A stretch of 64,000 nucleotides of DNA from a bacterium (GTDB lineage: Bacteria; Patescibacteriota; Minisyncoccia; Phycocordibacterales; UBA2100), in NCBI GenBank assembly GCA_030648265.1, contig JAUSHX010000010.1, positions 26,253 through 90,252 of the forward strand, in the 5' to 3' direction. Below the pieces are notes generated by a model. It was not told the origin of the DNA. It did no database searches and saw only the letters and a program-made list of their open reading frames with translations. Position numbers and translations under genes: made by a program. Below are positions 18,942-41,276 of the stretch, one piece after another. How positions within the stretch are numbered: the stretch's first letter is position 1; each line of letters starts with the position of its first letter.

Positions 18942-20218
18942 CGGTGGGTTTTGCCAAATATGCCGCGTCTGTGGCCATCGCGTTAATCGTCGTACCGGGC
19001 TTGGTCTTTGCTCAATCAACCGACGAATTGCAAAAACAGATAGATGAGCACAATTCACAGATTACAACGCTCAATAAAGAGATAGCACAATACCAGGCAC
19101 AGCTGGACACGACGTCCCAAAAGAAACAGACGCTCCAGAATGTATTGTCGCAATTGGATATCTCGCGAAAAAAGATTACCGCTTCAATTACGGTAACGAA
19201 AAAACAGATCAGTTCCACTCAACTGCAAATCCAGCAACTTGCCAGCGGCATTCACAGCAAGGAAGCTTCCATCAGCGGATACCAGGCATCTCTCGGGGAA
19301 TCACTCCGGGGGCTTAATCAGACAGAGATAGTACCGTTTGCGGAATCATTGCTTTCCACTGATTCAATTTCAGATGCATGGGGTGACGCGGAAGCTATTT
19401 CCCAGCTTCAGACAGCAGTACGGGACGATATCGCGCGCCTTGCAGGCGAAAAAGCATCCCTGTCAAAAACAAAGACAACCGCCGAGCAAAAACGCGAGCA
19501 ATTGCTAAAACAGCAGAAGACGCTCGTCGTACAGCAAGGTTCTCTTGATGCGACGGTCAAGGCGCAAAAAGAGCTTCTGGCACAAACCAAAGCCCAGGAA
19601 TCCACGTACCAAAACATCATTGCGCAAAAAATGGCGCAAGAAGCCGCGTTTGAACAGGCCTTGAGCGACCTGCAGTCAAAATTACAGTACACGGTCAGCC
19701 AGGCGGATATCTTGAAAGCCGGAAAAGGAATCATAAGGTGGCCATTGGATGCAGTCAGGATTACTCAACATTTTGGAAATACGGCTTTCGCTAGAGCCGG
19801 CGCATACAACGGCAAAGGTCATAACGGCATTGACCTTGCTGCACAAATCGGGACGCCCGTCAAAGCGGCGTTATCCGGCGTCGTCGTTGGCACTGGCAAC
19901 ACCGATTCTGTGAGAGGATGCTATTCCTTCGGCAAATGGGTGCTTATAAAACACAACAATGGACTTGATACTATTTACGCCCACCTTTCGCAAATCGGCA
20001 TCTCGGCCGGGCAATCCGTTGCAACAGGACAAGTGATAGGGTATAGCGGACAAACAGGATACGCTACCGGCCCGCATCTGCATTTTGGCGTGTACGTATC
20101 TTCCGCGACGCAAGTTATGAAATTGGGAGATGCAACGAACAAGAAAACTCCATGCTACAGCGCCGTAATGCCAATTGCGCCTCTGTCCGCTTATTTGAAT
20201 CCGGAGAACTACCTCTAG
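18938..20218 (+). CDS. M23-family peptidase with N-terminal coiled-coil (EnvC-like murein hydrolase activator/endopeptidase)
   Basis: Signal/TM segment, a long Q-rich coiled coil, and a C-terminal LytM domain (GHNGIDLAA...HLHFGVY). Confidence 0.85.
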   Translation: MTVGFAKYAASVAIALIVVPGLVFAQSTDELQKQIDEHNSQITTLNKEIAQYQAQLDTTSQKKQTLQNVLSQLDISRKKITASITVTKKQISSTQLQIQQLASGIHSKEASISGYQASLGESLRGLNQTEIVPFAESLLSTDSISDAWGDAEAISQLQTAVRDDIARLAGEKASLSKTKTTAEQKREQLLKQQKTLVVQQGSLDATVKAQKELLAQTKAQESTYQNIIAQKMAQEAAFEQALSDLQSKLQYTVSQADILKAGKGIIRWPLDAVRITQHFGNTAFARAGAYNGKGHNGIDLAAQIGTPVKAALSGVVVGTGNTDSVRGCYSFGKWVLIKHNNGLDTIYAHLSQIGISAGQSVATGQVIGYSGQTGYATGPHLHFGVYVSSATQVMKLGDATNKKTPCYSAVMPIAPLSAYLNPENYL

Positions 20219-20227
20219 GCAGAGTTG

Positions 20228-20890
20228 CTAGCCTCTAGCAGGGGAAGGCCACTCGGTGTTATTGATTGCCCTCACTTCCAAATTTGAGGCCTTACGGAGC
20301 TTCCTGATTGCCTTTTGCGGGGCGACATCAAAATGCCTGCTTCCGTCAAGCGCCTCTACCAGCCAATCTAATTCCTTTTCTTCCGTGACCCATTTCTCCG
20401 GAGCGTACCGGCTTAAATCAAACGGTTTAGAAAATCGCCGTAATGATTTCGTTCCGTCATCCATTATGTATTCATGGAAATATGACATCGCAAGTTCGCG
20501 CACACTTTTGTAAACAGGGTCTCTGTATCGGAGTATCGGGTGATTCGTCTTGCTTATAGCACCCCAGAGGCCATTCTCGGTGAAAAGAGCCACAACGTGG
20601 TCCTCGTCGCGGTCTATTGTGACAAGGTCCAGCAAAAGCGGTTTCTGGCCGTGGTAACAAAATGCCGCGGCCGCCAAAAGCGCGCCCTCAAAACAATGCG
20701 CAGTTTTATGTTGTATCAAGCGCCTCGGCGACATGTACGTTTCTTTTCCAATCTCAAAATTTATCGGAAGCGTATCCAAATAATCTTGTATCTTTTTCGG
20801 AGAATTAAGTTTAGCCAAAATTTTCCGCTCGGCAGGGGATAGCACGGCTTTTAATCTGTCGCGGTAGGCCATATGCCGTAGAATGTTCAT
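20228..20890 (-). CDS. hypothetical protein, transglutaminase-like/papain-like Cys-His fold (tentative)
   Basis: HKTAHCFEGALLAAAAFCYHGQKP...DHVVALFTENGLWGAISKT resembles a transglutaminase-like core (C...A..., H.W, D). It is the last gene of the four-gene xer operon. Confidence 0.35.
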   Translation of the reverse strand: MNILRHMAYRDRLKAVLSPAERKILAKLNSPKKIQDYLDTLPINFEIGKETYMSPRRLIQHKTAHCFEGALLAAAAFCYHGQKPLLLDLVTIDRDEDHVVALFTENGLWGAISKTNHPILRYRDPVYKSVRELAMSYFHEYIMDDGTKSLRRFSKPFDLSRYAPEKWVTEEKELDWLVEALDGSRHFDVAPQKAIRKLRKASNLEVRAINNTEWPSPARG

Positions 20891-21441
20891 TGTGTATTTC
20901 GGATCAACTTCTTGATTTTGTTCCTCTCTTCGGCTTCTAAGAACGTCAAAAAATCATTCAAATCCTTGCCAGCCGCAAAACAGTATCCGAAAACTGTCGT
21001 ATCGTCCACATCAGGGTAGGGAATCTGAATGCATTCCTGTACCCCACCTTGTTTGAAGTAAACGAGTGTTTTCTCGGGATTTTGGGTATGTCCACACTCC
21101 GCCACTATTGTATGGTCAGCGGTTAATACATCAGGGAAATATCCACAAAACTCATGTTCGTATACTACATCCCGGCTTCGTTGCTGTTTTAGATAAGTCC
21201 CGACGAGCATCTTTAGTGCTACGTGCGTGGAGCCGCCGCCAGCGGCTAAATCTGCGCGTTCTATCATCGTATTATTACTAGCGAGCGCAAGATATTCGCT
21301 CTTACGAGCGATAGAAACCGTTTGGTATTTCAAATAACCTTCGTTAACAAGAAATGCTATTTCGTTGATAGAATCAAGGTTGCCCGTAAAGGCGTGGCCG
21401 CCGGAGTAGAAAATATCGCGTATAGTTCCGAAAACGTCCAT
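20887..21441 (-). CDS. hypothetical protein (possible PD-(D/E)xK-like nuclease fold)
   Basis: 184 aa; YFPDVLTADHTIVAECGHT is loosely PD-(D/E)xK-like; overlaps its neighbours by 4 nt, suggesting an operon. Confidence 0.3.
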   Translation of the reverse strand: MDVFGTIRDIFYSGGHAFTGNLDSINEIAFLVNEGYLKYQTVSIARKSEYLALASNNTMIERADLAAGGGSTHVALKMLVGTYLKQQRSRDVVYEHEFCGYFPDVLTADHTIVAECGHTQNPEKTLVYFKQGGVQECIQIPYPDVDDTTVFGYCFAAGKDLNDFLTFLEAEERNKIKKLIRNTQ

Positions 21442-21444
21442 AAA

Positions 21445-22128
21445 TTACTTGTTGCCAATGTCCTTCCCGCCGTGAAATTTCTCATGGATATCTCTGCCAG
21501 CCGATTGCACGAGAGGATCGGGATAGGATTCTTTCCTTTTGAGCAGGGCTAACAAAGTTTCCATCGTTACGATTTTAGTAGTATTCGGGAGAGGATTGAG
21601 TTTGGCATTCGCATAACGATTAATATCGTCTTGTTTCAAATTCTTATTTGCTACAACCAGAAATAATTCAACCGGAAAATTGCGGTATTTGCTCATCTTT
21701 ATGTTGATATTAGACTGCAGATATTTCATTGTCTCTGTATAGAAAACGTCAATGCCGAAATTTCCATCAGGTGAATAGACATAGAAATCAACACGATTCT
21801 TTGAAGACTCAAAAAACTTCTCCGTATGGACAAAGACCTCGCCGAATTTCTCGCGCAAGACTTTTTCCAGTGCGAGCTCCGCTTTGCGGCCTCTGATATT
21901 TACGCGAGTGGCGATATCACTTCTGAAAACACCTTTTCCGAAATGAACGTCCGAATATCCGAGTTGGCTACGCAACCGCGCGAGACCGCCGAATCGCATT
22001 TGAATGTTCCGGGAAGAGGGCAGGTATTCAAGCTTGTCAATTTCCGGGGCGCGCGGAAGCCGCCCGTGTTCATTTTTAAACCGCTCAAAGCCTTCTTTAA
22101 TCTTTTCAATTGTCCAAATTTCCCTCAT
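21445..22128 (-). CDS. hypothetical protein (possible Vsr/DUF559-like PD-(D/E)xK endonuclease fold)
   Basis: 227 aa; NRVDFYVYSPDGNFGIDVFYTETMK resembles the DUF559/Vsr core (vDFy...lvIEvDG); immediately downstream of xer. Confidence 0.3.
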   Translation of the reverse strand: MREIWTIEKIKEGFERFKNEHGRLPRAPEIDKLEYLPSSRNIQMRFGGLARLRSQLGYSDVHFGKGVFRSDIATRVNIRGRKAELALEKVLREKFGEVFVHTEKFFESSKNRVDFYVYSPDGNFGIDVFYTETMKYLQSNINIKMSKYRNFPVELFLVVANKNLKQDDINRYANAKLNPLPNTTKIVTMETLLALLKRKESYPDPLVQSAGRDIHEKFHGGKDIGNK

Positions 22129-22164
22129 AAGTACATTACGATTTACGATGATATACTGTTTTTA

Positions 22165-23121
22165 CTATTTAAGTGGATGAAATTTCTTATGGGTGCTTTC
22201 GGCGTATTTATCCGAAGCATGAACATATCTAGTGGTCGTTTCCAGCGACTCATGGCCGAGTAGAACCTGAATAGCAGCAGGATTCGCTCCTTGTTCGGCA
22301 AGATAAGTGGCAAATCCGTGCCTAAGAGAATGGGCGCTCGTAGGCACATTTATGCCGAGAAGTTCACGGTATTTCTTAATTTTCATTTGAAGATAATTGG
22401 GCGAAATATGTTTGCTCTTATCTCTAGCATTGCTTCCTCGTTTTGGGATAAAGAGAAAAGGGGAGTCATCGGCGCGGTCTTTAAGGTAATTGTCTATATG
22501 TTTTTTGGCACGCCCTGTGAGATACACAAAGCGTTGTTTCTTACCCTTACCCAGTATAAAAATCCTGCCCGTTTTATCTATCTGAGTTTTTTTAATACTA
22601 ATGAGTTCCGAAATGCGCATACCGGACGCAAATAGCATTTCCAGCGCAGCGCGATTACGTAAAGCGACCATTTTATTTTTCTCAAATTTCATCGGCGCCT
22701 CAATTAACCTTTTTAACTCTTCCAATTCCGACACTTGAGGGTGTTTTTTTTCCATACGGAGCAACTTAATAGACTCGGGCGCAATCGGTGTCACGGTATC
22801 CATGTCAATCAAGTACGACAGGAAGCGCCTTAAAGAGGTCAGCGTACGGTTTATAGACCCGCTCTTGAGCTCTTTTTGTGCGACCGCACCCTTGGCCGTT
22901 TTGCGGTCACGAGAGTTCAAGTACGCTTTAAATTGCTCGATTGTGCGTTTTGTAATGTCTGAAAAAGGAATGTTATCCATTTCTTGAGAGAGGAAGCGCT
23001 CAAAAGTCATTAGATCTCTCTCGTAGTTATACAAAGTTTCCTTCGAATAATTATTAGCCTGAATGTGCAAGAGAAAATCCTCAAGAAAGGGGAGTCTGGA
23101 TTTTGGTTGATTTGTGGACAT
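22165..23121 (-). CDS. tyrosine recombinase, XerC/XerD family
   Basis: 318 aa; N-terminal core-binding domain and the C-terminal catalytic R..HxxR..Y region (HSLRHGFATYLAEQG...LLGHESLETTTRYVH). Confidence 0.88.
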   Translation of the reverse strand: MSTNQPKSRLPFLEDFLLHIQANNYSKETLYNYERDLMTFERFLSQEMDNIPFSDITKRTIEQFKAYLNSRDRKTAKGAVAQKELKSGSINRTLTSLRRFLSYLIDMDTVTPIAPESIKLLRMEKKHPQVSELEELKRLIEAPMKFEKNKMVALRNRAALEMLFASGMRISELISIKKTQIDKTGRIFILGKGKKQRFVYLTGRAKKHIDNYLKDRADDSPFLFIPKRGSNARDKSKHISPNYLQMKIKKYRELLGINVPTSAHSLRHGFATYLAEQGANPAAIQVLLGHESLETTTRYVHASDKYAESTHKKFHPLK

Positions 23122-23124
23122 AGT

Positions 23125-23156
23125 TAACTGAGTATAATAACTCTAATACTCAGTTA
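23125..23156. promoter_or_regulatory. dif-like palindrome adjacent to the xer start (candidate recombination site or operator)
   Basis: TAACTGAGTAT-aataactcta-ATACTCAGTTA: 11 bp inverted arms with a 10 bp spacer, 4 nt upstream of the xer ATG. Confidence 0.4.
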
Positions 23157-23378
23157 TTATAGCATAAACCTGTAGTCATGGGGGAACGCTGTGGATAACG
23201 CATTTAGATCCTGTTTAATCCATTTCTGACGCTTAATCACTAACATAAAGGTCAGACAACGGGTATCGCTCGCGTTTTTCTACGTCGCGGAGAAAATTAA
23301 AAAGATACTACGGAGAATTAGTCACGCAATACGCGATACTCCATACACGATATAATATGCGTTTTCACTACCCCTCCC

Positions 23379-23969
23379 CTATTTCCAAGGAATTGGGAAT
23401 TCTTCAAATTCGGGCAAAAGTTTTCTTCCGTACAAAAGCCGTGCAATTACTTCTGCGTGTGATAAAGCACCTGTGAGCGCGTTGTGCGGACTGGGTTCCT
23501 CGGGAATCCCGCAATAGTTTAGAACTGCATCAAGGTCAAGCGCAGACCGGCGGTGCTTCACAGGCGGTTGAATCCCCCGCTCTATCATATGCATATAGCA
23601 GAGCGTGTGCGTATCTATAGTGCGATATGCAAATTGCCAATCTGTGTGTCCCGCACGCTCCGCGGCCGCCTTCAGAAAATCGCGGTCAAACGAAACATTC
23701 TGCCCCGCCAATGTCCTCTCCTCCACGCTCTCGCTCCAGTGTAAAAAAGCGTGTATCAAATCGCCTTCGCTTTGTTTCTTTGCGTCGGTGATCTGACTTT
23801 TGGTAAATCCGTTCACCTCAAGAGCTTCGTCCATAATATGTGCGCCGTCCCACACGCGACATTCTTCGTAGAACCGGTTTGTTGGATTCGAAAAATCAAG
23901 CGCGCCCACCGATACGATAGAGTGCTTTTTCGCCTCGGTTCCTGATGCTTCTACGTCAACGACAATCAT
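23379..23969 (-). CDS. DEDDh 3'-5' exonuclease (DnaQ-like/RNase T/oligoribonuclease family)
   Basis: VVDVEASGTE (Exo I), the Exo II/III motifs and H..ALTGALSHAE; preceded by the leader module. Confidence 0.75.
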   Translation of the reverse strand: MIVVDVEASGTEAKKHSIVSVGALDFSNPTNRFYEECRVWDGAHIMDEALEVNGFTKSQITDAKKQSEGDLIHAFLHWSESVEERTLAGQNVSFDRDFLKAAAERAGHTDWQFAYRTIDTHTLCYMHMIERGIQPPVKHRRSALDLDAVLNYCGIPEEPSPHNALTGALSHAEVIARLLYGRKLLPEFEEFPIPWK

Positions 23970-24150
23970 GTTAGAGATTCTTAGTGAGCGGTAGCGAGCT
24001 TAGAAGCTCTTACATCCCTCCCCAATTTAGTATCCGTTCTCATGTGTTAATTTTGCGATTTCGCTGAGACCGTCTCAACAGTATATCAAATTTGAGAGGC
24101 GATTGTGTGATACCAAATTGGGGAGGGATTAGAAAAATATAGTCGCTTCG
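23970..24150 (-). promoter_or_regulatory. conserved leader module, copy 6 (minus strand), abutting the exonuclease gene ATG
   Basis: Minus-strand reading: hairpin ATCCCTCCCCAATTT ... AAATTGGGGAGGGAT (roughly 75 nt loop) + GTAAGAGCTTCTAAGCTCGCTACCGCTCACTAAGAATCTCTAAC-ATG. Confidence 0.75.
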
Positions 24151-24154
24151 CTTC

Positions 24155-24574
24155 TTATTTTCCTAATCCTTTGCAATTTTTGGCGGGAGAATATCCTGCA
24201 GAACGAGCATTCGCCTCGCTCGTAAACCACACCTGATTTTGCGGAGCGATTTTAGCGGCTGAAGCGCACCATGGGAAATAGTATGCACTACCCGTTCGGG
24301 ATGCCACTATGAGGCCTCCTATACTCATTCCCCGCGGTTCTGCGACGGTAGGCGCATTTGTGATTGATACAGTGGCACGAACACTCTCCAATACAGACAA
24401 ACGCCCTAGTCCGAACGAGCCCAAAGCGACCAATAGCACAATAAGAAGCAGTCCCCACTCTCCTATCGCAACATCCGCCCAATTCTTGATTTTATTAGTA
24501 AAATCACGAAGCATAGCGTAGTAGATTTTACTATACCCTGTTAAATCCCGTTCTGCATCCTGCAGACGGGACAA
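24155..24574 (-). CDS. membrane-anchored protein with Ada-like Cys zinc-binding-type C-terminal domain
   Basis: One TM segment; the C-terminus YYFPWCASAAKIAPQNQVWFTSEANARSAGYSPAKNC resembles the Ada N-terminal metal-binding motif (F.RPSC...NV.F..S..EA..AGFRPCKRC). The start may be at the internal Met (24514). Confidence 0.4.
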   Translation of the reverse strand: MSRLQDAERDLTGYSKIYYAMLRDFTNKIKNWADVAIGEWGLLLIVLLVALGSFGLGRLSVLESVRATVSITNAPTVAEPRGMSIGGLIVASRTGSAYYFPWCASAAKIAPQNQVWFTSEANARSAGYSPAKNCKGLGK

Positions 24575-24721
24575 CTTGAATTATATCGGCGCATAATGTA
24601 TATTACTGGGAACTTGAGTAGGGATGCTGATACGGCTATCACATTTCATAGCATTTCAAGTTGTATTTAACAGGGTGTAAGTTGTTTCTAAACTCGCTTA
24701 CGCTCATTAAGAAAAACTAAC
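24530..24721 (+). promoter_or_regulatory. conserved leader module, copy 5, abutting the rpmA ATG
   Basis: ACCCTGTTAAAT (24536) ... roughly 125 nt loop ... ATTTAACAGGG (24683) + TGTAAGTTGTTTCTAAACTCGCTTACGCTCATTAAGAAAAACTAAC-ATG. Confidence 0.7.
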
Positions 24722-24994
24722 ATGGCCCATACAAAAGCAGGAGGAACAGCGCATAACCTGAATGACTCAAATCCTAAGTATTTAGGGGTTAAGCGCGCGG
24801 ATGGCCAGAAGGTTGGAGTGGGCGAAATTATTGTCCGCCAGAGAGGGACAAAAATCCTGCCCGGCAAGAACATCGGCGTAGGCACAGACCACACCCTTTT
24901 TGCGATGTCTGCAGGCGTTGTTCACTTCCGCTCAAAAAGAAAGATGGATTTTGACGGACGTTCTAACGTGCGTAGAGTTGTTGACGTTGTCTAA
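24722..24994 (+). CDS. rpmA: 50S ribosomal protein L27
   Basis: MAHTKAGGT...[27 protein letters not shown] is the L27 signature. Confidence 0.93.
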
Positions 24995-25434: not shown

Positions 25435-25569
25435 ATGGGCAATCCTACTTGAATTCCCCGTTTCCAGCAAAAGACGCCGTGTTAGAGAATGTGTTAGAGA
25501 ATTTTGTGCAGAAATTTGTCTACACCTTCGCGAGTATGGAAATAATACTCTGCGGCACTTGAGGCGGAT

Positions 25570-26364
25570 TTACCAACACGGGGCGAGAGCGCCCCAGAGG
25601 CCTGCCGCATCTTTGAGCTCCGCGAGACGAAGTTCAGGAAGCTTCGGATAAGGCGAGGAAAAGCGCTTGAGCGCCGACGCGACATCGGCAAGCCGGTAGC
25701 CGTTGTCTTCGTTCATCATTCCGCCTCCGAGCACGAAGATTTCAGGCGACCAATGCAGTATCATATTGTAAATTCCCGCCGCGAGGACGGGCGTCATTTC
25801 CGCGTAGCCTTCGCGCGGCGCCTTGCTTGGGTGAACTCCGTAGCGCTTCTCAAAAGCTCGTCCGGAAACAAGTTCTTCCAATTCCCTGCCCTCTTTCGCA
25901 TCCACGATTTGGTGTCCCGCTTCAAAGTCGTAGACGCCGCCGTCTATGCGCCCATCAACGACGCGGCCGCATCCGATGCCGGTGCCGACGCCGGCATACG
26001 CAACGATGCGCGCGCCGCGGCCTGCGCCATACGCCGCCTCTCCGAGAGCCGCGAAATCTCCGTCGTTCAGCACTTCCGCAGGCGCCCCAAGCGCGTGCGT
26101 AAGCTCCTCGGTGAGCGCGACGCCCTTCCATTCCGGAAGGTTCGGCGCGTACTGTATAACGCCCTTGCCCATTACGCCCGGAAAACCGCCCGCCGCGGCC
26201 TCTATTCCTTCTGCGCCCGCGCACTCGCGCGCGAGATTTGCGAGCGCTTTAACTCCCTCTTTCGGATTTTTAGGAGTCGGTATCTTGCGCACTTCGCCCA
26301 ATCCATCCTCTAATGCGCGCGCCGCGCGCATTGAGGTACCGCCTATGTCAAATACGATTTTCAT
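25570..26364 (-). CDS. ROK-family sugar kinase (glucokinase-like)
   Basis: MKIVFDIGGTSMRAA and a GxGxG ATP-binding region of the ROK/actin-like ATPase fold. The start was chosen at the MKIVFDIGG Met. Confidence 0.7.
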   Translation of the reverse strand: MKIVFDIGGTSMRAARALEDGLGEVRKIPTPKNPKEGVKALANLARECAGAEGIEAAAGGFPGVMGKGVIQYAPNLPEWKGVALTEELTHALGAPAEVLNDGDFAALGEAAYGAGRGARIVAYAGVGTGIGCGRVVDGRIDGGVYDFEAGHQIVDAKEGRELEELVSGRAFEKRYGVHPSKAPREGYAEMTPVLAAGIYNMILHWSPEIFVLGGGMMNEDNGYRLADVASALKRFSSPYPKLPELRLAELKDAAGLWGALAPCW

Positions 26365-26424
26365 CCCGTTAAAGCCAATTTTTGCCATAGTATCTGTTAT
26401 ATATCGCAACATTTCTAACGGGAC

Positions 26425-27618
26425 TCATTCTTCCATCATATCAAGAACGAGAGCGCCCCATGTGAAGTTGTGCGCCCCAATCCCCGTTCCTGTTTCCGGA
26501 TTGAAGCACTCGCGGAAGCCGGAGCGTTCAAGAAGCGCGATGCTTTTCTTGCGGATATCCTCGGCCTCTGCGGTAAAACCGTATCGCATGAGCCCATGGT
26601 AGATGAACCAGTGCGATCCTATCCACACCGGTCCCCGCCACGAAAAATCTTCCGCTTCCGGCCGGTACGACATTTCCCGAATGGATGTCGTGCGGATGCC
26701 GAACGGCGCCGCGAACGTGTCGGGGTTTTTGAGATGTTTTGAAACGACCTCCTCGGCTTCCTCCTTTGTATAAAGACCGGCGAAGAGCGGGATGAAGTGC
26801 GCCCATGTCGCGACTTTAAGCTTCGTGAAATCGGCGCCCATGGCGGACCAGTAGACGCCGTCTTCAAACATCCGCTCGCGCATCGCGCCAGCGACCGCAT
26901 CGGCTTCGCGCTTGAGCGAACTCTCGTACTCATCGCGTTTGAGGTATGCGGCGATTTTTGCGAGCACGCGCAGATTCTCCGCCAAAACCGCGTTAAAGAG
27001 CACGTCTTTTACCCAAAAGAAATTGCGCATGCATCGCCCCGCGTCAAAATCGCATTCTCTGTTTTTGTCCACAAGCTCCGTGCGCTTCGCGAGATGGTCC
27101 TTGAGCGAGACGGCGGACGGCACCCCGAGAGGAATATCAAAGCGCGGCGAGTTGTCCTCACCCGACTCATCCGGACTGATGATGCTCGCAAGATGATGCC
27201 CGTACGGGTCGCGCTCGGAAAGAAGATAATTGTAGTACGCGACGAGTGCGGGAAAAATAGAGGCGAGGAACGATGTGTCCGGCTCGCGGCGGTGTATCTC
27301 CCACGCGGCGTACGCGAGCATCGGCGGCTGCGTGAGAGAGCTCGTGCCATCCGTGCCCCAGTGAAAGAGGTGAAGGATTCCAGGCGTCCAATAAATTATG
27401 TGTGGCACAAGGCCGTTTGAGAATTGTTTTGAAAGAAGCGACTGTATCTCGGCCTTCGCGGATTCCACATCGTACCGCGCGAGGACGATGGCGTGGAAGC
27501 ACGAATCCCAAAGCCACTGATACGGATAGTGGTCGCCGGAGGGGACGGTGTATTGGTGGCCGTCCGTTGTGCGGCGATTTTCTTCAAGGAGTTTGCGCGA
27601 CTCGCGATAGACATCCAT
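26425..27618 (-). CDS. (alpha/alpha)6-barrel glycoside hydrolase, GH63/GH37/GDE_C-like (putative trehalase/glucosidase)
   Basis: 397 aa; YPYQWLWDSCFHAI and downstream acidic residues are typical of six-hairpin glycosidases; adjacent to otsB/otsA. Confidence 0.5.
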   Translation of the reverse strand: MDVYRESRKLLEENRRTTDGHQYTVPSGDHYPYQWLWDSCFHAIVLARYDVESAKAEIQSLLSKQFSNGLVPHIIYWTPGILHLFHWGTDGTSSLTQPPMLAYAAWEIHRREPDTSFLASIFPALVAYYNYLLSERDPYGHHLASIISPDESGEDNSPRFDIPLGVPSAVSLKDHLAKRTELVDKNRECDFDAGRCMRNFFWVKDVLFNAVLAENLRVLAKIAAYLKRDEYESSLKREADAVAGAMRERMFEDGVYWSAMGADFTKLKVATWAHFIPLFAGLYTKEEAEEVVSKHLKNPDTFAAPFGIRTTSIREMSYRPEAEDFSWRGPVWIGSHWFIYHGLMRYGFTAEAEDIRKKSIALLERSGFRECFNPETGTGIGAHNFTWGALVLDMMEE

Positions 27619-27630
27619 AATTTCAGTATA

Positions 27631-28473
27631 TCAGAGGGCGCGTGAACGGAACGCGGCAAGCCCCGTTAGAGACCGCGAGGGCTCGCAGCGCATATTCGTC
27701 TCTAACGGGGCAAGCCACAGGAGAAATTTCCGCACGCTTTCCGTATTATTGAGCGTATAGCTGGCCGCCGTCTCGGCGTTTTTTCCGTTCTTCACGCGAA
27801 TTGTGATGCCGCGCCGGAGAGCCCGAAACGCACCCTCGTCTGTCTCATCATTGCCGATAAAGATAGGGACGGCGTTCTTTGAGCTCTTAATGCAGGAGGC
27901 CATCATTGCCGCCGCTCTTCCTTTGTCCCATCCGGCTTTCGGAAGAATGTTGAGAACAAGGATGCCGCCAATGATGTGGAGGCGCGAGGCACCAAAGCGG
28001 CGCGCGATGCGCCGCACTTCGCGCTCTACCGCCCTAGGGTGCACGCGGGCGCGCCTGAAGTGGACGCTTATGGAAAGCTTTTTATCCTCCACATAGACGC
28101 CCTTGTAGCGCTTCTCCAGAGCTGTGAGCCCCTTTCGTGCCGCGCGAAGCGCGCGCATCATCGCGGGAGATACGGCAATCCGCTTTTGCTTTCCCGCGAC
28201 GAACCATTCAAGCCCGTGATTGCCGGCGATTGATACATTGCCGAGGCGGATGCGCTTTTTTACATCCGCGAGCGCGCGGCCCGTAACGATTGCAAGAGGC
28301 ATGCGCCGCGCGCATAGAGAGAGCGCGCGGCGCATGCCCGCGCTCATCCTTGCTTTGTCGGGCTTACTGACGATTGGAGCGAGCGTGCCGTCAAAATCAA
28401 GCATCACGACCGCGCCTCCCGCGCGCTCTATGCGCCGTGCGATTCTGGAGCGATTGGCGAGCGCGTCCCGCAT
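27631..28473 (-). CDS. otsB: trehalose-6-phosphate phosphatase
   Basis: HAD motifs (MLDFDGTLAPI, GNDETDEGAF); precedes otsA. Confidence 0.8.
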   Translation of the reverse strand: MRDALANRSRIARRIERAGGAVVMLDFDGTLAPIVSKPDKARMSAGMRRALSLCARRMPLAIVTGRALADVKKRIRLGNVSIAGNHGLEWFVAGKQKRIAVSPAMMRALRAARKGLTALEKRYKGVYVEDKKLSISVHFRRARVHPRAVEREVRRIARRFGASRLHIIGGILVLNILPKAGWDKGRAAAMMASCIKSSKNAVPIFIGNDETDEGAFRALRRGITIRVKNGKNAETAASYTLNNTESVRKFLLWLAPLETNMRCEPSRSLTGLAAFRSRAL

Positions 28474-28476
28474 ACG

Positions 28477-30687
28477 CTAGCCGATGAGCGCGAGCGCCTT
28501 TATCAATTCCGCCGACCAGCGGTATATGTTGTAATCGCGCACGGAAGCGCGCATTGTCTTCATGCGGCGATGTTGTTCCGCCTTCGGCATGATAAGCGCG
28601 GCATGGAGCGCGGAAGAAGTTTCCTCGGCGCTGTACGGATTGATAAGAATCGCGCCTTTGAGGTCGCGCGACGCTCCGGCAAACTGGCTCAAAACGAGTA
28701 CGCCCGATTCGTCGCTGCGCGCGGCCGCGAACTCCTTCGCGACCAAGTTCATGCCGTCGTGCAAAGATGTGACGAGGCAAACGTCCGCAAGCTGGTAAAG
28801 GTTTATGAGTTCGTCGTGTGAGTGATTCCGCTTTTCCAGCATAATCGGCTTCCAATCCTTCGCGCCGAATTTCTTATTGATGCGCTCCGCTTCCCCGGTC
28901 ACTTGAGCGGCATACTCGCGGTATTTCTCCACGGACTCGCGGGTCGGCGCCGCGATTTGCAGCATCGTAAGATTGCCCCTGTATTCGGGATGCGCGTCCA
29001 GTAAGAATTCTATCCCCTTGAATCTCTCCAGTATCCCCTTCGTGTAATCAAGCCGGTCCACGCCGAGCACCAAATGCCTGCTTGTGATGCCAAGGTCTTC
29101 CAGAACTTTCCTACTCGGTTCTTTATGCGCTTCGGCGCTCCCCGGAAACGCGATTGAGATGGGAAACGGCCGTATCAGCGTGCGGTACTCGTTTCTGTAT
29201 ATTGAATACTGCTCGTAATCTATGCGCGATTCAATTTCCTTTCCGACCGTGTCAATAAAATTGTTGCAGTACTGTTGCGTGTGGAATCCGATGAGGTCGG
29301 CCCCGAGCATGCCCTGCAGAATCTCTTTTCGCCACGGGCAAATGCTGAATTGCTCCGCGCTCGGCCACGGAATGTGCCAAAAAAGCGACACTTGGGCATC
29401 GGGGCGGCTTTTCTTAATGAGCGCCGGCAAAAGCGCTAGGTGATAGTCCTGAACCAGAATAATCGGCCGTTCAACATTGCGTATTTCATCAAGAACGGTT
29501 TTTGCGAACAGTCCGTTTACCTTGCGGTACTCCCGCCAATCTTCGGCGCGGAAAAGTGGGCGCACGTGCGCCATGTGGCACAGCGGCCAAAGCGCCTCGC
29601 TTGAGAGACCGCTGTAATATCCCCTCACCTCTTTCGGGGTAAGCCAAACGCGCTTCAGAGTGTACTTCGGCTCCTCCGGCGGGACCGCTATTTTGTCGTC
29701 GGCGTCCACGACCGACTTGTCGGCGTCTCCGCTCCCGTGCGCTATCCACGTCCCTCCGCACGCCTCCATCACGGATTCAAGCGCCGTCACGGCGCCTCCC
29801 GCGGGCACGGACCATTTTGTGCCATTTTTAGTTTTCGTGTGCACGTACGGCTCGCGGTTTGAAACGACAAAGATGGGCCGGTCTTTCAGATACATACGAA
29901 TAAATTCTTTCAGGCGTTCCGCTGTCCACGGCGAATCAATTTTCTCAAGGCGCATGCGGGCCTCCTCGCTCGCCGCATGGCGCGCCTGATGCAGGCTTCT
30001 CGCCACTTTTGATATTTCTCCCGCGAGTGGCTCAAAGAAGCTTGAGCTAGGTTCCGCGTCAATGCCGAAATTTCCCCTGCGCGCCGCCTGCAGAGACGCG
30101 ACCATCCTCGTGATGGCCCGGTAAAAAACCAATCGTACAAGAATGAAAATCGCGATGGCGAATATTAAAATCTGGGAAAATCCCCGAAGCAGGTTGTTGC
30201 GCCAGATATCCGATATGCTCTCGTCTATATACGTGGCGTCTTGAGCGACAGCAAGCGCGCCGATGACGCGCCCGTCTTCGTGAAGCGGCGTCACGTGCAC
30301 GTAGTATGTGCCGTCACTGCGGCGCACAAAGCTTCCGCCTGATTCATCACTGTCCATCACCGTCGTTACGAGTTCGCCGCCGTCTTTAGAAATCGGCACG
30401 TTTGCCGACCCGGCGACCATGGCACCCGAGCTGTCAAAAACGCTTAAACCGGCGAGCCGCTCACTGCTGACAAATCTGTCTATAATTCTCTGCACGGTGC
30501 TCGTCGCGCGCGTGTTGTACGCCGGTTCTATGCTTTCCGCGAGGCTGTCGGCCAATACTTGGCTGCGGGATTGCAGGCGCGATGTAAGTTCAATCTGTTC
30601 TTGGCTCGCCTGATTCAAAGAAAAAAGCCCGACAATAAGGCCTACAACGAGAACGACGCCGCCTGTAATGAGGATGACCTGCCGCAT
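28477..30687 (-). CDS. otsA: trehalose-6-phosphate synthase (GT20) fused to an N-terminal two-TM extracytoplasmic sensor-like domain
   Basis: C-terminal approx. 480 aa with GT20 signatures (ILVQDYHLALLPALIKK..., FWHIPWPS, GxDxLDYxKG). The N-terminal approx. 250 aa has a TM segment, a roughly 150 aa non-cytoplasmic domain, and a second TM segment. Confidence 0.8.
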   Translation of the reverse strand: MRQVILITGGVVLVVGLIVGLFSLNQASQEQIELTSRLQSRSQVLADSLAESIEPAYNTRATSTVQRIIDRFVSSERLAGLSVFDSSGAMVAGSANVPISKDGGELVTTVMDSDESGGSFVRRSDGTYYVHVTPLHEDGRVIGALAVAQDATYIDESISDIWRNNLLRGFSQILIFAIAIFILVRLVFYRAITRMVASLQAARRGNFGIDAEPSSSFFEPLAGEISKVARSLHQARHAASEEARMRLEKIDSPWTAERLKEFIRMYLKDRPIFVVSNREPYVHTKTKNGTKWSVPAGGAVTALESVMEACGGTWIAHGSGDADKSVVDADDKIAVPPEEPKYTLKRVWLTPKEVRGYYSGLSSEALWPLCHMAHVRPLFRAEDWREYRKVNGLFAKTVLDEIRNVERPIILVQDYHLALLPALIKKSRPDAQVSLFWHIPWPSAEQFSICPWRKEILQGMLGADLIGFHTQQYCNNFIDTVGKEIESRIDYEQYSIYRNEYRTLIRPFPISIAFPGSAEAHKEPSRKVLEDLGITSRHLVLGVDRLDYTKGILERFKGIEFLLDAHPEYRGNLTMLQIAAPTRESVEKYREYAAQVTGEAERINKKFGAKDWKPIMLEKRNHSHDELINLYQLADVCLVTSLHDGMNLVAKEFAAARSDESGVLVLSQFAGASRDLKGAILINPYSAEETSSALHAALIMPKAEQHRRMKTMRASVRDYNIYRWSAELIKALALIG

Positions 30688-30814
30688 CCGGATAATGATA
30701 CCCTTGCCGCCCCTTTAATTCAACTGGCAAAAAACAATGCAATATCGGCTCTGTCGCGTACCGCGCCCCCGATGAATCGTCGGCGACGATTTGGTCTGGA
30801 ATTATTCCCATCGC

Positions 30815-30850
30815 AAACATTCCAACATTCTTGAGAATGTTGGAATGTTG
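30815..30850 (-). terminator. 13 bp inverted repeat downstream of the P-type ATPase gene (candidate intrinsic terminator)
   Basis: CATTCCAACATTC-ttga-GAATGTTGGAATG. On the minus-strand transcript it is followed by UUUGCG. It could alternatively be an operator for otsA. Confidence 0.35.
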
Positions 30851-30885
30851 CTATCAGACCAGCGACTGCGCGTCAAACCCGCTCC

Positions 30886-33573
30886 TCATGCTATGGCCAT
30901 GGTCTTCCTTCTATTGAAGAATTTGCGTATTTCCTCAACCAGCACGACAGATGCTGCGACTGGCACGATGATCAGCCACTCGGAGAGCTCAAGAGACGTT
31001 GTCTTGAGAAGTCCCTGCATCGTGGGATTATAGACGACGAGAAACTGCAAAGAGATAATAATCGCCGTGGCCGCGAACAAGAATTTGTTGGAGAACGGAT
31101 TTGTTTGGAATATAGATTTTGATTCGTGCCGGCAGTTCCAGGCGTTGAACCAATGCCCGACCGCGAGGGTCGTCAACGCGACCGTCCACGCTTTCACCAT
31201 GTCGGTTTCATAATACAAGCTGAATAACGCGAGCGTTCCAATCGCGAGAGGGGCGGCCATAAGCACAATCCTTTTAATCATGGCTTCGTCTATCAAGTAT
31301 TTTTTCGGCCGCTCAAAATCGCCCTTTAGCAACCCGTCCTCTTTCGGCTCCATGGCGAGCGATACGTCCAAAAACCCGTCGGTGACAAAATTCAGCCAGA
31401 TGATTTGAGCCGCAAGCAACGGAAGAGGAAAGCCGAGAAACAGAGCCCCCGATATGGTTAAGACCTGGCTCAAACTACCCGCAAAGAGATACATGAGTAC
31501 TTTCTTGATGGTTTTGTATATGCTCCTGCCCTCTTCCACGGCCGACACGATGCTCCCGAAATTATCGTCCAGTAGAATAATGTCCGCGGCCTCCTTTGCC
31601 ACCTCGGAGCCGATTTTTCCCATGGCCACTCCGAGGTCGGCGGCGACGAGGGACGGGGCGTCGTTTACTCCGTCTCCGGTCATGGCCACGATTTCCCCCC
31701 GCGCCTTGTATGCTTTTATAATTCTCAATTTATGTTCGGGCGTCACTCGCGCAAACACCGAGGTTTTGGATAATTTTGCGGAAAGCTCGGCATCAGAAAA
31801 AGCGTCAATATCAAGTCCCTCCAGAATGGTGTCTCCTTCTTGATAAATGCCGGCCTCTTTCGCTACCGCTTGAGCCGTGGCTCTGTGGTCTCCCGTAATC
31901 ATCACTACCCTGATGCCGGCGGAGGCGGCTTTTTGCATGGCCTCCGCCACTTCCGGACGAAGCCCGTCTTTCATGCCGAAAAATCCGACAAAGGTAAGGG
32001 ACCCAACGTTTTCGGGTTTGATTATCTCGGGCACCTCGCCGGTTTCAGAGAAAGCGATAACCCGCAACCCTTCCCGCGACAGGGAGAGAAAGACGGCTTC
32101 CAATTCTTGCTTTTCTTCTTTTGACAAAAAGTAGCTTTTTCCGCCGCGCCACACTTTGTGAGAAAGGCGCAAAACCTCTTCCGGCGCGCCAACGACGGTC
32201 AGCATTTTCTGGCCGTCAGTTTTATGAACCATCGCGTGATACTTCAGTTTGTAATCAAAGGGAATCTCGCCGACAGGCGGCGATTCGCGCTCCAAATCGC
32301 CCTTGTTGAATCCAAGTTTCTCGGCGAGCACAAGCATCGCCGCTTCGGTCGGGTCGCCGGCAACGCGCCACGCCTTTTCTTCTTCCGAAAACATCACGCG
32401 GGCGCTGGCGCAAAAAGCCGCGATTTTCCCCGCGAAAAGCAGTTCCTGGTGATTGGCCGGGTCAATCACGCTGTTATGCAGTTGAATCTCTCCTTTCGGC
32501 TCATAACCGACGCCGCCGACCTCAAAAAATTTCCCGTCTATATATACCCTTTGAATCACCATCTCATTTTTTGTAATGGTGCCTGTCTTGTCCACGGCAA
32601 TTACCCGCGCTTGTCCCAGTGCTTCCACGGCCTGGAGCTTTTTTACCAATGCATTGCGTTTTGACATTCTCCACACGCCGGTTGCCAAAACAAGAGTCAT
32701 CACAATCGGGAGTCCTTCAGGAATTATTGACACGGAAAGCGAGACCACGGTAGTGAACATTTCTTTTATTGATTTCCCGTACAAGATGCCGATGAGAAAC
32801 AGCGTGGTGCTTATGCCCGCGGTAGCGATGACGATAAGCCGTGAAAGATCCCGCACATTGGTTTTTAGGGGGATTTCGGTATCAATCGCCCCGATTTCTT
32901 TGGAAATTTTGCCGATGACCGTATCAAGGCCGATTTCCGTCACAATCGCCCTCCCGTTTCCGGCAAGAACGTGCGTCCCTTTAAATACCATGTTTTTTTG
33001 CTCTGCGGTTGCGCGGCCGGCCGTCTCAAGGGCATCGGGAATTTTGCGCACCGGTTCTGATTCTCCGGTAAGAGCCGCCTCGTCAACTTTGAGATTCGTA
33101 GCCGCAATAACTCGCGCGTCCGCCGGGACTTTCTCGCCCTCCTGAAGAATTATGATGTCTCCGGGCACCGTTTCGCTATCGGCAACGATGAGCTCGTTTC
33201 CCCCGCGCAGAACTGTCGCTTTTGTTTCAACAAACTTCTTGAGCGCGAGAAGCGTGTTTTGCGCTTTGCCCTCCTGAATTGTCCCGACAGCGGCATTGAA
33301 AAGAAGCACGGCAAAAATAATAAGACCGTCCACAGTTTCCCCAATGGCAAATATGACCGCCGCGGCGGCAAGGAGAATGTAAATCAGGGGACTCTGGAAT
33401 TGACGGAGGAAAATAACGGGCACACTGTCCGCCGTGCCTTCCGGCAGCTTGTTTGGGCCGTATTCCCTTAGACGGCGCTCCGCTTCTTCTTTCGTTAAAC
33501 CGCGTTCGTGCGAGCGCAGCGCCGCAAGAACTTCGGCGGTTGTTTGGGTATACAATGGAATTTGTCGTGTCAT
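30886..33573 (-). CDS. cation-transporting P-type ATPase (type II, Ca2+/Mg2+-ATPase-like)
   Basis: 895 aa; phosphorylation motif DKTGTIT, TGDHRATAQAVA, GDGVNDAPSL, and 10 TM segments. Confidence 0.92.
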   Translation of the reverse strand: MTRQIPLYTQTTAEVLAALRSHERGLTKEEAERRLREYGPNKLPEGTADSVPVIFLRQFQSPLIYILLAAAAVIFAIGETVDGLIIFAVLLFNAAVGTIQEGKAQNTLLALKKFVETKATVLRGGNELIVADSETVPGDIIILQEGEKVPADARVIAATNLKVDEAALTGESEPVRKIPDALETAGRATAEQKNMVFKGTHVLAGNGRAIVTEIGLDTVIGKISKEIGAIDTEIPLKTNVRDLSRLIVIATAGISTTLFLIGILYGKSIKEMFTTVVSLSVSIIPEGLPIVMTLVLATGVWRMSKRNALVKKLQAVEALGQARVIAVDKTGTITKNEMVIQRVYIDGKFFEVGGVGYEPKGEIQLHNSVIDPANHQELLFAGKIAAFCASARVMFSEEEKAWRVAGDPTEAAMLVLAEKLGFNKGDLERESPPVGEIPFDYKLKYHAMVHKTDGQKMLTVVGAPEEVLRLSHKVWRGGKSYFLSKEEKQELEAVFLSLSREGLRVIAFSETGEVPEIIKPENVGSLTFVGFFGMKDGLRPEVAEAMQKAASAGIRVVMITGDHRATAQAVAKEAGIYQEGDTILEGLDIDAFSDAELSAKLSKTSVFARVTPEHKLRIIKAYKARGEIVAMTGDGVNDAPSLVAADLGVAMGKIGSEVAKEAADIILLDDNFGSIVSAVEEGRSIYKTIKKVLMYLFAGSLSQVLTISGALFLGFPLPLLAAQIIWLNFVTDGFLDVSLAMEPKEDGLLKGDFERPKKYLIDEAMIKRIVLMAAPLAIGTLALFSLYYETDMVKAWTVALTTLAVGHWFNAWNCRHESKSIFQTNPFSNKFLFAATAIIISLQFLVVYNPTMQGLLKTTSLELSEWLIIVPVAASVVLVEEIRKFFNRRKTMAIA

Positions 33574-33800
33574 GGGTTATTTAATCAAATCGTCGGTTCT
33601 CCAAGAATCAGATTCCGCCGGACAATCAATTTCCCCGCGGCAAGACGCGGGGAAATGCCTGCGGCGGGCCACGGGAGAATACCTGCGGCTATTATATATT
33701 ATCCGCGCGTTGCACTCGGCCCGGAGTTTTTTACGAGGCAAGGAATGAGCGCATAGGAATATTTTAAGATCTTAGAAAATGCCGTGTCCCGCCCGCCACG

Positions 33801-34436
33801 TCATAGTGTTTTGGCGATTGACCCTATCAATAAAATGCCGATGCAGTTGAATGTAAAGGAGAGAGGAATAAACCAGGACATTTTCATTTTTGAGAAGCCC
33901 AAAAGGCTGATTCCCAACTCGTCGGGAAGTGGAGAGGCGATAATTAAACCGCCGACAACGAATGTAAACCATCTGAAGAACCGTAGGTGGAGGAGTGTGC
34001 TTACTCTTCTCCCCGCTCTCCGGTGCCCGACGAGCTCCATCAGGTGCTCTGAAAACCTGTCCCGGATAAACCGGAAAATTATCAAGTCTCCGAGTACAGC
34101 CCCCATTGCTCCGAAAATGGCCGTCAGAAACACCGAGTTGGCCTGGGCAATCTCGCCTAGAGCGACTATTGCCGGAGCAGTTGTAAAAACTGAAGTGAAA
34201 AACATCCCTGCGATAAAGCTTCCCAGTAACTCCCGTTCATGGGTAGCGGTTAGTATATTTACTAAGACTTCTGTTTTTACCAAAATTACAGCGATAAGAA
34301 CGCTGAATGCGATGATAGATATATCCCGTAGAAAGAAATTGTTCTTGCGTTTCCTTGTTTTCATTTGAGTACAATGACCCGAGTACATGTATTTTGTATC
34401 TCGTATTTTGTATTTAGTATGAATACAAGATACCAA
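33801..34436 (-). CDS. hypothetical integral membrane protein
   Basis: Multiple hydrophobic helices. The real start is probably an internal Met (MKTRKRK...). Confidence 0.4.
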   Translation of the reverse strand: MVSCIHTKYKIRDTKYMYSGHCTQMKTRKRKNNFFLRDISIIAFSVLIAVILVKTEVLVNILTATHERELLGSFIAGMFFTSVFTTAPAIVALGEIAQANSVFLTAIFGAMGAVLGDLIIFRFIRDRFSEHLMELVGHRRAGRRVSTLLHLRFFRWFTFVVGGLIIASPLPDELGISLLGFSKMKMSWFIPLSFTFNCIGILLIGSIAKTL

Positions 34437-41200: not shown

Positions 41201-41276
41201 CCTTCTGCCACTTACGTTCAATAGCCAGATGGTCGTATTTCTTCATATGTTCCATGGTCGCCTGCCCCGTAGCCAA
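38268..41276 (-). CDS. leuS: leucine--tRNA ligase carrying an inserted alpha/beta-hydrolase (serine hydrolase) domain
   Basis: 1002 aa; LeuRS HMGH-like region (PYPSGNLHVGH), the CP1 editing domain (TVFTTRPDTLFGATY), KMSKS (KMSKSRGN) and the anticodon-binding domain. Residues approx. 250-430 form an extra domain (LLLHGYKGS...IIVGHSLGGTVAM). Confidence 0.9.
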   Translation of the reverse strand: MATGQATMEHMKKYDHLAIERKWQKEWSKAGLYKTPDSIKGKENFHLLVEFPYPSGNLHVGHWYAFALPDILARAERMRGKNVLYPIGFDAFGLPAENAAIKNKLNPRTWTEENIAYMKKQISSMGTSFDWSREVITCNPDYYKWTQWLFLQLFKRGLAYQKNTPVNWCPKDKTVLANEQVVDGRCERCDSEVVQKEMLQWNIKITDYADRLIDDLAPLNWPEQIKESQRNWIGRSEGAEINFPLEFAKKDIPKPNFLLLHGYKGSAKGSFKPWLKEELEKMGYNVQLPDMPNSAEPKESEQVQYIIDNCQIDESTIIVGHSLGGTVAMKILQKINRPIAGLVLVAPAIDSAFPGAEKRPFWKDFSWDIDYENLKKLCSFRVVLSDTLEKAHRGAYLKQLSEKLDAQFIEGQAKKEHFNGTEEPLVFAQLTPHITVFTTRPDTLFGATYLVLAPEHPLLRQGFGGQAWVDLLDNREEVVRYIALSAKKTDMDRQTNKEKTGVRLEGVEAINPATGEKIPVYIADYVLGHYGTGAIMAVPAHDERDFAFAKKYDLPIRQVITPAGKFVGELEGAYTGDGVMMNSGAFNGKTVAEGKEAVTEKLGSKKTTYKLRDWIVSRQRYWGVPIPIIHCEKCGDVAVPDKDLPVKLPDIKDYLPEGSGKSPLAKAKKWVTVKCPKCKGAAERETDTLDTFVDSSWYFLRYTDPKNKKEFASKDKQKNWMPVDLYSGGAEHTTMHLLYSRFWHKALFDMGLVSDSEPYTRRMNRSLILGPDGQKMSKSRGNVVDPDEVVARLGADTVRMYLAFIGPYSEVSSYPWNPNGVVGVRRFLERVWKVGQFTAGSLQSTENANIEPLLHRTIKKVGEDISALKFNTAISALMVLLNAIEKSGGITVKQWSIFLKLLSPFAPHIAEELWREAGNSTSIHLEEWPEFDPALLKDENVTIVIQINGKTRGEVQVPSDSDKSAVEKAARATVDARLVGQKISRTIVVPGRLVNFVVSEKV
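39989..40529 (-). other. inserted alpha/beta-hydrolase domain within leuS (RBBP9/YdeN-like serine hydrolase fold)
   Basis: About 180 aa between NWIGRSEGAEINFPLE and TPHITVFTTRPDT, where E. coli LeuRS has only NDYDNT. Contains GHSLGG in a nucleophile-elbow context. Confidence 0.7.

Follow-up and report, generated by a model that had tools for sequence, protein, structure and literature searches.

A conserved palindrome beside a single xer gene as the probable chromosomal dif site of a large clade of Candidate Phyla Radiation bacteria

A 64,000-nucleotide stretch of a patescibacterial genome (GenBank assembly GCA_030648265.1, contig JAUSHX010000010.1, positions 26,253 to 90,252 of the forward strand; hereafter the window) contains a gene for a Xer-type tyrosine recombinase that is directly preceded by a long palindrome and followed, on the same strand, by three further genes, here termed g2, g3 and g4 in this order. 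The locus raises two questions: whether the palindrome is the dif site of the adjacent recombinase, and whether the four genes form a functional unit. An earlier note, made from the letters of the window, had taken the palindrome for a dif-like site of the kind that adjoins the recombinase gene in single-recombinase systems, and had offered two readings of the gene cluster, a mobile or defence-related module parked at dif or an unrelated operon fusion. Here, the locus was compared with its counterparts in other genomes and in metagenome contigs. As judged from these sequence comparisons, the palindrome is probably the chromosomal dif of a single-recombinase Xer system, with the adjacent gene encoding its recombinase, in a large clade of the Candidate Phyla Radiation (CPR)/Patescibacteria (Paceibacteria-type). 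The proposal of a dif-like site is borne out by the conservation of the site, its 11-6-11 layout, a nearby switch in gene strand and guanine-cytosine (GC) skew, and the existence of a second Xer/site pair of the same design. The four-gene block, in contrast to the first of the two proposed readings, is a lineage-specific juxtaposition brought about by recent local rearrangement and not a fixed unit.

The recombinase gene (xer, 22165-23121, minus strand) encodes a protein of 318 amino acids (aa), here termed Xer1, which matches the Pfam Phage_integrase domain (3e-35) together with SAM-like N-terminal domains. Its catalytic RKHRHY set is complete: R169, the lysine in GKGKK, H264-x-x-R267, H290, and Y299. 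Because its NCBIfam scores all lie under the equivalog cut-offs (bits/cut-off: XerC 198.1/335, XerD 188.1/329.6, XerA 179.3/220, XerS 104/267), Xer1 would be classified as Xer-like but outside all of the named XerC/XerD/XerS/XerA orthologue groups. The nearest solved structures are those of P. abyssi XerA (4a8e, E 1e-24) and E. coli XerD (1a0p). Homologues number 4409 at E<=1e-20, and the top 120 of them are at least 74% identical to Xer1 and all come from Patescibacteria-type sources. No second tyrosine recombinase was found in the 64-kilobase (kb) window or in the flanks of any locus compared with it.

The putative dif site (23125-23156, minus strand) is a perfect 11-10-11 palindrome, TAACTGAGTAT-aataactcta-ATACTCAGTTA. 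It lies upstream of xer as the earlier note had it, although the distance to the ATG codon (23122-23124) is 3 nucleotides (nt) and not 4. Read on the xer-coding strand, the site can also be written as TAACTGAGTATTA-GAGTTA-TTATACTCAGTTA, a 13-6-13 arrangement with one arm mismatch, and its 28-nt core (23127-23154) as the 11-6-11 arrangement ACTGAGTATTA-GAGTTA-TTATACTCAGT, with complementarity between the arms at 9 of 11 positions. The consensus of the core site is ACTGAGTATTAGAG(T/A)TATTATACTCAGT. Since its centre, GAG(T/A)TA, is asymmetric, the site has a polarity, and this polarity is conserved relative to xer. The 11-6-11 layout with an asymmetric centre corresponds to the canonical design of tyrosine-recombinase core sites, and the near-identical arms fit a homodimeric single-recombinase system like XerA, XerH or XerS (PMC5357621). 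The inner arms, TATTA/TTATA, resemble those of the dif sites of E. coli, B. subtilis and Frankia (F. alni) (..ATAA-N6-TTAT..; PMC3025954).

As a palindrome alone, the site is not exceptional, because the window holds 11 comparable perfect inverted repeats (arms >=11 nt, spacers <=12 nt) against 0.15 expected, besides 71 shorter ones; what distinguishes it is its conservation across genomes. The regions upstream of xer in the window and in four other genomes, whose Xer proteins are 76-94% identical, can be aligned only over the palindrome, where 31 of 32 positions are invariant, spacer included. The exact 28-nt core, ACTGAGTATTAGAGNTATTATACTCAGT, occurs in 70 metagenome contigs, one copy in each. 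Five of these contigs end within ~125 nt downstream of the site; of the 65 informative ones, 64 have xer downstream of the site, always with the same polarity with respect to the asymmetric centre. The full-length Xer proteins of the site-bearing metagenome loci are 66-96% identical to that of the window. Given that this set had been selected by the site itself, loci reached without it, by way of g2, g3 or Xer, were also checked, and the site was present with 0-4 mismatches per 28 nt, between unalignable flanks, in all 11 independently sampled lineages (L001, L002, L010, L015, L090, L093, L095, L097, L099, L100, and L102). Altogether, it is near-invariant beside orthologous xer genes in more than 75 loci with random flanks, and the information content drops to ~0 immediately beyond its outer TA..TA. 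Variation is limited to positions 2, 8, 15-16 and 27, and one allele carries a symmetric change at positions 2 and 27 (C..G to T..A).

Could a transcriptional signal account for this degree of conservation? The palindrome overlaps the probable promoter and 5' end of xer, being placed between an extended -10-like element directly upstream, TGCTATAAT, and the start codon 3 nt downstream; it stands upstream of xer in nearly all loci, and the DnaA box that accompanies it (see below) is a known type of transcription-factor site. It might accordingly be only an operator or promoter element of xer, bound by Xer, DnaA or another regulator, and no recombination site. However, in loci with the site immediately before xer, the ATG follows at anything from 3 to 96 nt, and the site is kept intact where a gene for a 154-aa protein intervenes (L102/L103, 722 nt) and where xer is 3.2 kb away (L025), so it is not merely a promoter element. 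Its 24 contiguous invariant positions, centre included, at Xer identities of 66-96% go far beyond typical operator conservation, its layout is that of a tyrosine-recombinase core site, and no two-hexamer promoter was predicted at the site. Moreover, a regulatory role is compatible with dif, which may autoregulate, and the operator is a true rival only in its exclusive form, which we consider unlikely.

At the RNA level, the palindrome could form a hairpin with an 11-base-pair (bp) stem and a 10-nt loop (-12.5 kcal/mol) ending 3 nt before the ATG, which would suit an element of the xer 5' leader affecting translation or stability, or a terminator of the upstream gene. This explanation is very improbable: the z-score of the fold is only -1.84, the loop is as invariant as the stem, and the stem itself is invariant instead of showing compensatory changes, with two of the three variant combinations at positions 2 and 27 (A-G, G-G) breaking the outer pair. 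In addition, the palindrome lacks a T-run, its distance to the ATG is variable, and no Rfam match was found in 20000-24800.

A further line of evidence comes from a second recombinase. Four of the lineages found through g3 (L087, L104, L105, L106) carry Xer2, which is 30-33% identical to the window Xer and has an NCBIfam XerC score of 221-229 bits, again under the cut-off. Xer2 occupies the same syntenic slot as Xer1 in three of the four lineages, the outer context being different in L106. Upstream of each xer2 gene lies another site, site 2 (nnTTCG(T/C)TTTA-CATATA-TTGT(G/A)CGAAnn; pattern TTCGNTTTACATATATTGTNCGAA), which also has the 11-6-11 layout (L087:4990-5020, L104:2975-3002, L105:2985-3012, L106:2933-2960) and was found neither in the window nor at any Xer1 locus. 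The type of site therefore switches with the type of recombinase, site 1 going with Xer1 and site 2 with Xer2, which ties the identity of the site to that of the recombinase. Such a joint switch is what would be predicted for a pair of recombinase and core site, and it would be hard to explain by an unrelated regulator. It looks as if one recombinase/site module had been replaced by another in the same slot.

The chromosomal position of the site is in line with dif as well. Fifteen of the 16 genes before 20.2 kb are encoded on the plus strand and 32 of the 36 genes after it on the minus strand; the two blocks converge at 20219-20227, where the plus-strand block consists of mraY-ftsW-murG-gltX-M23 peptidase. 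The cumulative GC skew has its maximum at 19-20 kb, and the site is ~3 kb away from this switch in strand and skew. With the loci turned so that the site reads in one direction, the left flank has a higher GC skew than the right one in 13 of the 15 lineages whose flanks were long enough. This convergent switch looks terminus-like, as a signal that is not independent of gene orientation.

Besides the terminus-like switch, the site has a companion in most lineages. A perfect DnaA box, TTATCCACA on the xer-coding strand (23190-23198, minus strand), lies on the side of the site away from xer, 44 nt before the start of the 28-nt core, and is the only perfect box in 64 kb. Of 71 distinct loci, 28 carry a perfect box, and 57 a box with one mismatch or none, no more than ~60 nt from the site, and the other 576 kb of the site-bearing loci hold only 3 perfect boxes, which amounts to a ~300-fold enrichment near the site. 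An unbiased count of 7-mers in the flanks returned only fragments of the DnaA box as strongly enriched (31-35 of 68 loci, vs ~0.02 expected per locus). The box occurs in both orientations, either directly against the xer-proximal arm or, on the far side of the site, at a distance of 42-57 nt. In L102, whose site is separated from xer, the box has remained with the site, and in L087, L104 and L105 a box adjoins site 2. DnaA-dependent control of xer expression or of recombination at the site are candidate explanations; DnaA may serve at dif as an accessory or timing factor that couples recombination or xer expression to the replication cycle, replacing FtsK or acting alongside it. The box also prompted us to consider the locus as oriC. 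This reading was rejected, because a single perfect box with no cluster was found in the 64 kb, the genes converge, and the cumulative skew shows a maximum and not a minimum.

The terminus-like location, together with a DnaA box that is tightly associated with the site and moves with it, would also suit a site bound by some other terminus factor, such as a fork trap or a DnaA-titrating or DnaA-regulating locus, to which xer is adjacent by coincidence. The Ter inverted repeats of B. subtilis, for instance, adjoin rtp. Yet the type of site changes together with the type of recombinase, and no candidate gene for a terminator protein is consistently adjacent; we regard this explanation as improbable.

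The second question, whether xer and the genes behind it form a unit, was addressed through synteny. The open reading frames and their spacings in the window were reproduced as described before: xer is followed by g2 (21445-22128, 227 aa), g3 (20887-21441, 184 aa) and g4 (20228-20890, 220 aa), all on the minus strand, with gaps of 36, 3 and -4 nt. A promoter/terminator scan detected neither a canonical promoter before xer nor a terminator between any of the four genes, which makes their co-transcription plausible in this genome. The proteins of the window were mapped onto 16 loci from a genome search seeded with the g2 alignment and onto the 70 metagenome loci found by the palindrome. A core block, mraY-ftsW-murG-gltX-M23 peptidase ... 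RNase T-like exonuclease-orf139-L27-L9, is conserved, and the majority arrangement within it is M23> [<g4] SITE xer> [g2>] <exo, g4 being located across the site in opposite orientation, or missing, in most lineages. Among the loci examined, the order xer-g2-g3-g4 was seen only in the window. The closest relatives (L001 and L030, Xer 94-96% identical) have xer-g2-g4 without g3, and L002 has xer, g2, ~2 kb of other DNA (L002:10606-12676) in the place where the window has g3, and then g4. A four-gene unit is thus not supported by the neighbourhoods compared.

The arrangement of the window can be traced to an inversion. Relative to most lineages (compared: L015, L036, L086, L090), the segment comprising the site, xer and g2 is inverted in the window and in its nearest relatives (L001, L002, L020 and L030), while its flanks (M23 peptidase and g4; exonuclease) keep their orientation. 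The inversion brings g2 in line with g4, and it is through this event that g4 would have come to stand behind xer. The inverted segment is small and is located at the terminus-like switch. As for the other two genes, g2 follows xer in 22 of 54 loci and is found in the same block without a nearby xer in L005, L006, L013 and L014; its nuclease-fold product is widespread in the CPR, and the gene is part of this syntenic block. The placement of g3 is more regular: it comes right behind a tyrosine recombinase gene in each of the five lineages that were found through g3 and examined (L087, L090, L104, L105, L106), which represent both Xer types, with a gap of 2-8 nt or an overlap in four of them and of ~130 nt in L090, and it still follows xer in L106 despite the different outer context. 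g3 may be an accessory factor of Xer. Of the two readings offered before, the unrelated operon fusion comes closest for g2 and g4, but it does not cover g3 with its recurrent place right after xer.

For g4, the earlier call of a transglutaminase-like Cys-His protein was correct. The protein matches CPR-C4 (PDB 7pjo/7ob6) over residues 7-216 with a phmmer E of 1e-78, its C66, H98 and L120 align with the C61/H93/L115 triad of CPR-C4, and S113 (CPR-C4 S108) and the Asp residues of the Zn site are kept. CPR-C4 is a Candidate Phyla Radiation cysteine protease whose fold is vasohibin/transglutaminase-like and whose triad is Cys-His-Leu(carbonyl) (PMC9108980). With a full-length match and no substantive difference from the solved proteins (PDB 7ob6, 7ob7, 7pjo), g4 is, on the strength of this alignment, clearly a CPR-C4 orthologue, and this identity places the window in a CPR/Patescibacteria genome. 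The CPR-C4 paper reports no informative gene context (PMC9108980), with which the synteny observed here, where g4 is not fixed next to xer, agrees. Looking up the exact g4 sequence in a contig index returned no record.

Neither g2 nor g3 gave a significant match in sequence searches of Pfam, NCBIfam, PHROGs, PADLOC and PDB. Structure prediction with AlphaFold, with models of good confidence (predicted local distance difference test, pLDDT, 80.6 for g2 and 88.3 for g3), gives both proteins the alpha-beta-beta-beta-alpha-beta core of the PD-(D/E)xK fold, which g2 carries behind an N-terminal helical domain. Both represent conserved families of Patescibacteria: 230 homologues with ~64% mean column identity were collected for g2, and 47 with ~50% identity for g3. 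The invariant residues are E84, H101, E103, D114, D127 (D127-V-F) and K147 in g2, and H73, K77, E95, D104, E115-C116-G117 and K124 in g3. The conserved acidic residues lie on the expected strands, and the catalytic lysine is out of its canonical place in both proteins, that position being taken by F129 in g2 and by G117 in g3. Profile-profile comparison of g2 with g3 showed no relationship, so they are not paralogues. The nuclease guesses made earlier for these two proteins were thus right as to the kind of fold, and the quoted motifs are present, but the DUF559/Vsr assignment of g2 has no significant profile match behind it. Identity of g2 to the window protein is 57-87% over 33 aligned homologues, and by tblastn the gene is 46-88% identical in genomes labelled Paceibacteria, Nomurabacteria, Moranbacteria, Doudnabacteria and Saccharibacteria; its conservation exceeds that of neighbouring housekeeping genes such as L9 and the M23 peptidase.

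Mobile elements and defence islands often carry tyrosine recombinases and PD-(D/E)xK nucleases, g3 is missing in the closest relatives, and the gene content near the site is variable; together, these features might indicate that the recombinase, the palindrome and the three genes are such an element, with the palindrome as its attachment site. This explanation can be given very little credence. The palindrome is single-copy in the window, where a search for a second palindrome or half-site returned only one half-site with one mismatch, at 50811, consistent with chance. With up to 7 mismatches allowed, the loci held no copy besides the single site of each; neither the window nor the ~10 kb around the site at any locus had a second or degenerate site, and hence nothing like the attachment-site pair that had been considered. 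PADLOC reported no matches, its best hit, pPIWI_RE_REase against g2, being not significant at E 0.019, and the PHROGs scan of g2-g4 found nothing. Neither site 1 nor site 2 was matched in 2.9 million viral contigs, so this search gave no sign of phages exploiting the site or of a mobile element mimicking it. Finally, both g2 and g4 are widespread in the CPR and conserved by vertical descent, and xer and the site are fixed between the same core genes (murG-gltX-M23 ... exo-L27-L9) in many lineages; core-gene flanks conserved in this order point to a resident chromosomal locus. With an order of four genes that is unique to the window, no second site and a silent PADLOC, a mobile or defence module at dif is unsupported.

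The preferred reading, a chromosomal dif with its single recombinase, can be compared with the Xer systems described so far. XerS/difSL of streptococci and lactococci is likewise a single tyrosine recombinase gene beside its dif, the two forming one module near the terminus (PMC5357621). It differs in the size of XerS (356 aa vs 318 aa for Xer1, which scores 104 against the XerS cut-off of 267), in the architecture of difSL, a 31-bp site with unequal arms and an 11-bp centre whereas the site here has near-identical arms and is best read with a 6-bp centre, and in the unrelated sequence of the sites. XerH/difH of Helicobacter and Campylobacter shares the single recombinase and a strongly palindromic site, whose centre is debated as 6-10 bp (PMC5357621), a debate that has its parallel in the 11-10-11 and 13-6-13 readings of the present site. 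Xer1 matches XerH only distantly (5jjv, E 1e-13), and the arm sequences differ, those of difH being AGTTATGAAAA. Archaeal XerA/dif resembles the present system in its single recombinase and in a 28-bp 11-6-11 site conserved across a wide clade (PMC5357621), but the host here is a bacterium of the CPR, and the XerA score of Xer1, 179, is below the cut-off of 220. XerC/XerD-dif of E. coli and B. subtilis has the 11-6-11 layout, similar inner arms (PMC3025954) and a location at the GC-skew shift point; here, by contrast, a single xer gene was seen and stands right next to the site, arm symmetry is almost perfect, and the XerC/XerD cut-offs are missed. XerL/dif of Legionellales, described in 2022, is another late-recognised, lineage-specific single-recombinase system, found from site conservation near the terminus (PMC9765430), with the differences that XerL was proven genetically and that both its recombinase and its site differ in sequence from those studied here. 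Xer-like simple tyrosine recombinases of candidate phyla have been grouped apart as the 'Cand' subgroup (Smyshlyaev et al. 2021, PMC8138268); in its passages on this subgroup, that source gives a classification of proteins, with no recombination site, gene linkage or terminus position. Full-text literature searches returned no description of a dif site in Patescibacteria/CPR.

By analogy with these systems, two Xer protomers would bind the near-identical 11-13-bp arms of each site, and two sites on a chromosome dimer would synapse. Cleavage and strand exchange would then take place at the borders of the asymmetric 6-bp centre, GAG(T/A)TA, and the dimer would be resolved to monomers at the replication terminus. 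Xer1 would be the protein that binds and cleaves the site, and this one recombinase would be sufficient. The site and the xer gene would move as one module, as in XerS/difSL.

Several points weigh against this reading. The case rests on sequence comparisons. The overlap of the site with the probable xer promoter makes a regulatory role also plausible. The copy number of the site was established within the 64 kb of the window and within 21 kb or less of every other genome, and the count of xer genes covers the window and the locus flanks, so a second xer paralogue may exist elsewhere in the genome. The GC skew is largely confounded with gene orientation; when skew at third codon positions was used in an attempt to separate the effects of replication from those of transcription, the signal was weak and came from 4 counter-oriented genes. 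In relatives, the minus-strand block beyond the site is short and mixed. The locus lies at 542 of 721 kb in the complete genome CP174359.1 and at 273 of 487 kb in CAZXQA010000001.1, positions that are uninformative without that of the origin (oriC). Lastly, we know of no described dif of which a DnaA box is a feature, and something beyond, or other than, plain dimer resolution may therefore occur at the site. Dimer resolution might be wired here unlike in all described Xer systems, through DnaA at dif and/or a nuclease-fold partner encoded after xer; we hold this to be rather unlikely. One possibility for such a partner is that it processes the Holliday-junction intermediate of the single Xer.

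Several other features of the window were recorded. Between the genes for L9 and an S41 peptidase, which are adjacent in relatives, the region ~25500-34400 encodes a ROK kinase, an MGH1-like glycoside hydrolase, a trehalose-phosphate phosphatase, a trehalose-phosphate synthase and a P-type ATPase; part of this block has a GC content of 0.57 vs ~0.48, and it is probably an acquired, terminus-proximal island. Among the other inverted repeats, the palindromes at 2203-2232 and 51860-51900 share arm sequence (ACCCAGCACCTTTCG / CGAAAGGTGCTGGGT; ACCTAGCACCTTTGTTTC / GAAACGAAGGTGCTGGGT) and may be a repeated regulatory or terminator element, and further long perfect palindromes lie at 15-62, 28298-28338 and 30816-30849. 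The leucyl-tRNA synthetase (38268-41276, minus strand, 1002 aa) contains an inserted alpha/beta-hydrolase/serine-hydrolase domain at residues ~255-362.

Much of bacterial diversity belongs to the CPR/Patescibacteria, on which hardly any experimental work exists. For these organisms, the comparison removes a false lead, in that the four-gene 'module' is a lineage-specific juxtaposition whose last gene encodes the already characterised CPR-C4 protease. A near-invariant 28-bp site with an adjacent recombinase would provide a terminus marker for orienting and checking CPR assemblies and for growth-rate estimates based on origin/terminus ratios, and the recombinase and its site would make a small, testable pair. 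Two Xer/site modules in one slot would amount to a natural experiment in the joint replacement of a recombinase and its site. The DnaA boxes at both types of site and the nuclease-fold gene after xer may offer leads on how replication, recombination and division are coordinated in these tiny, dependent cells.

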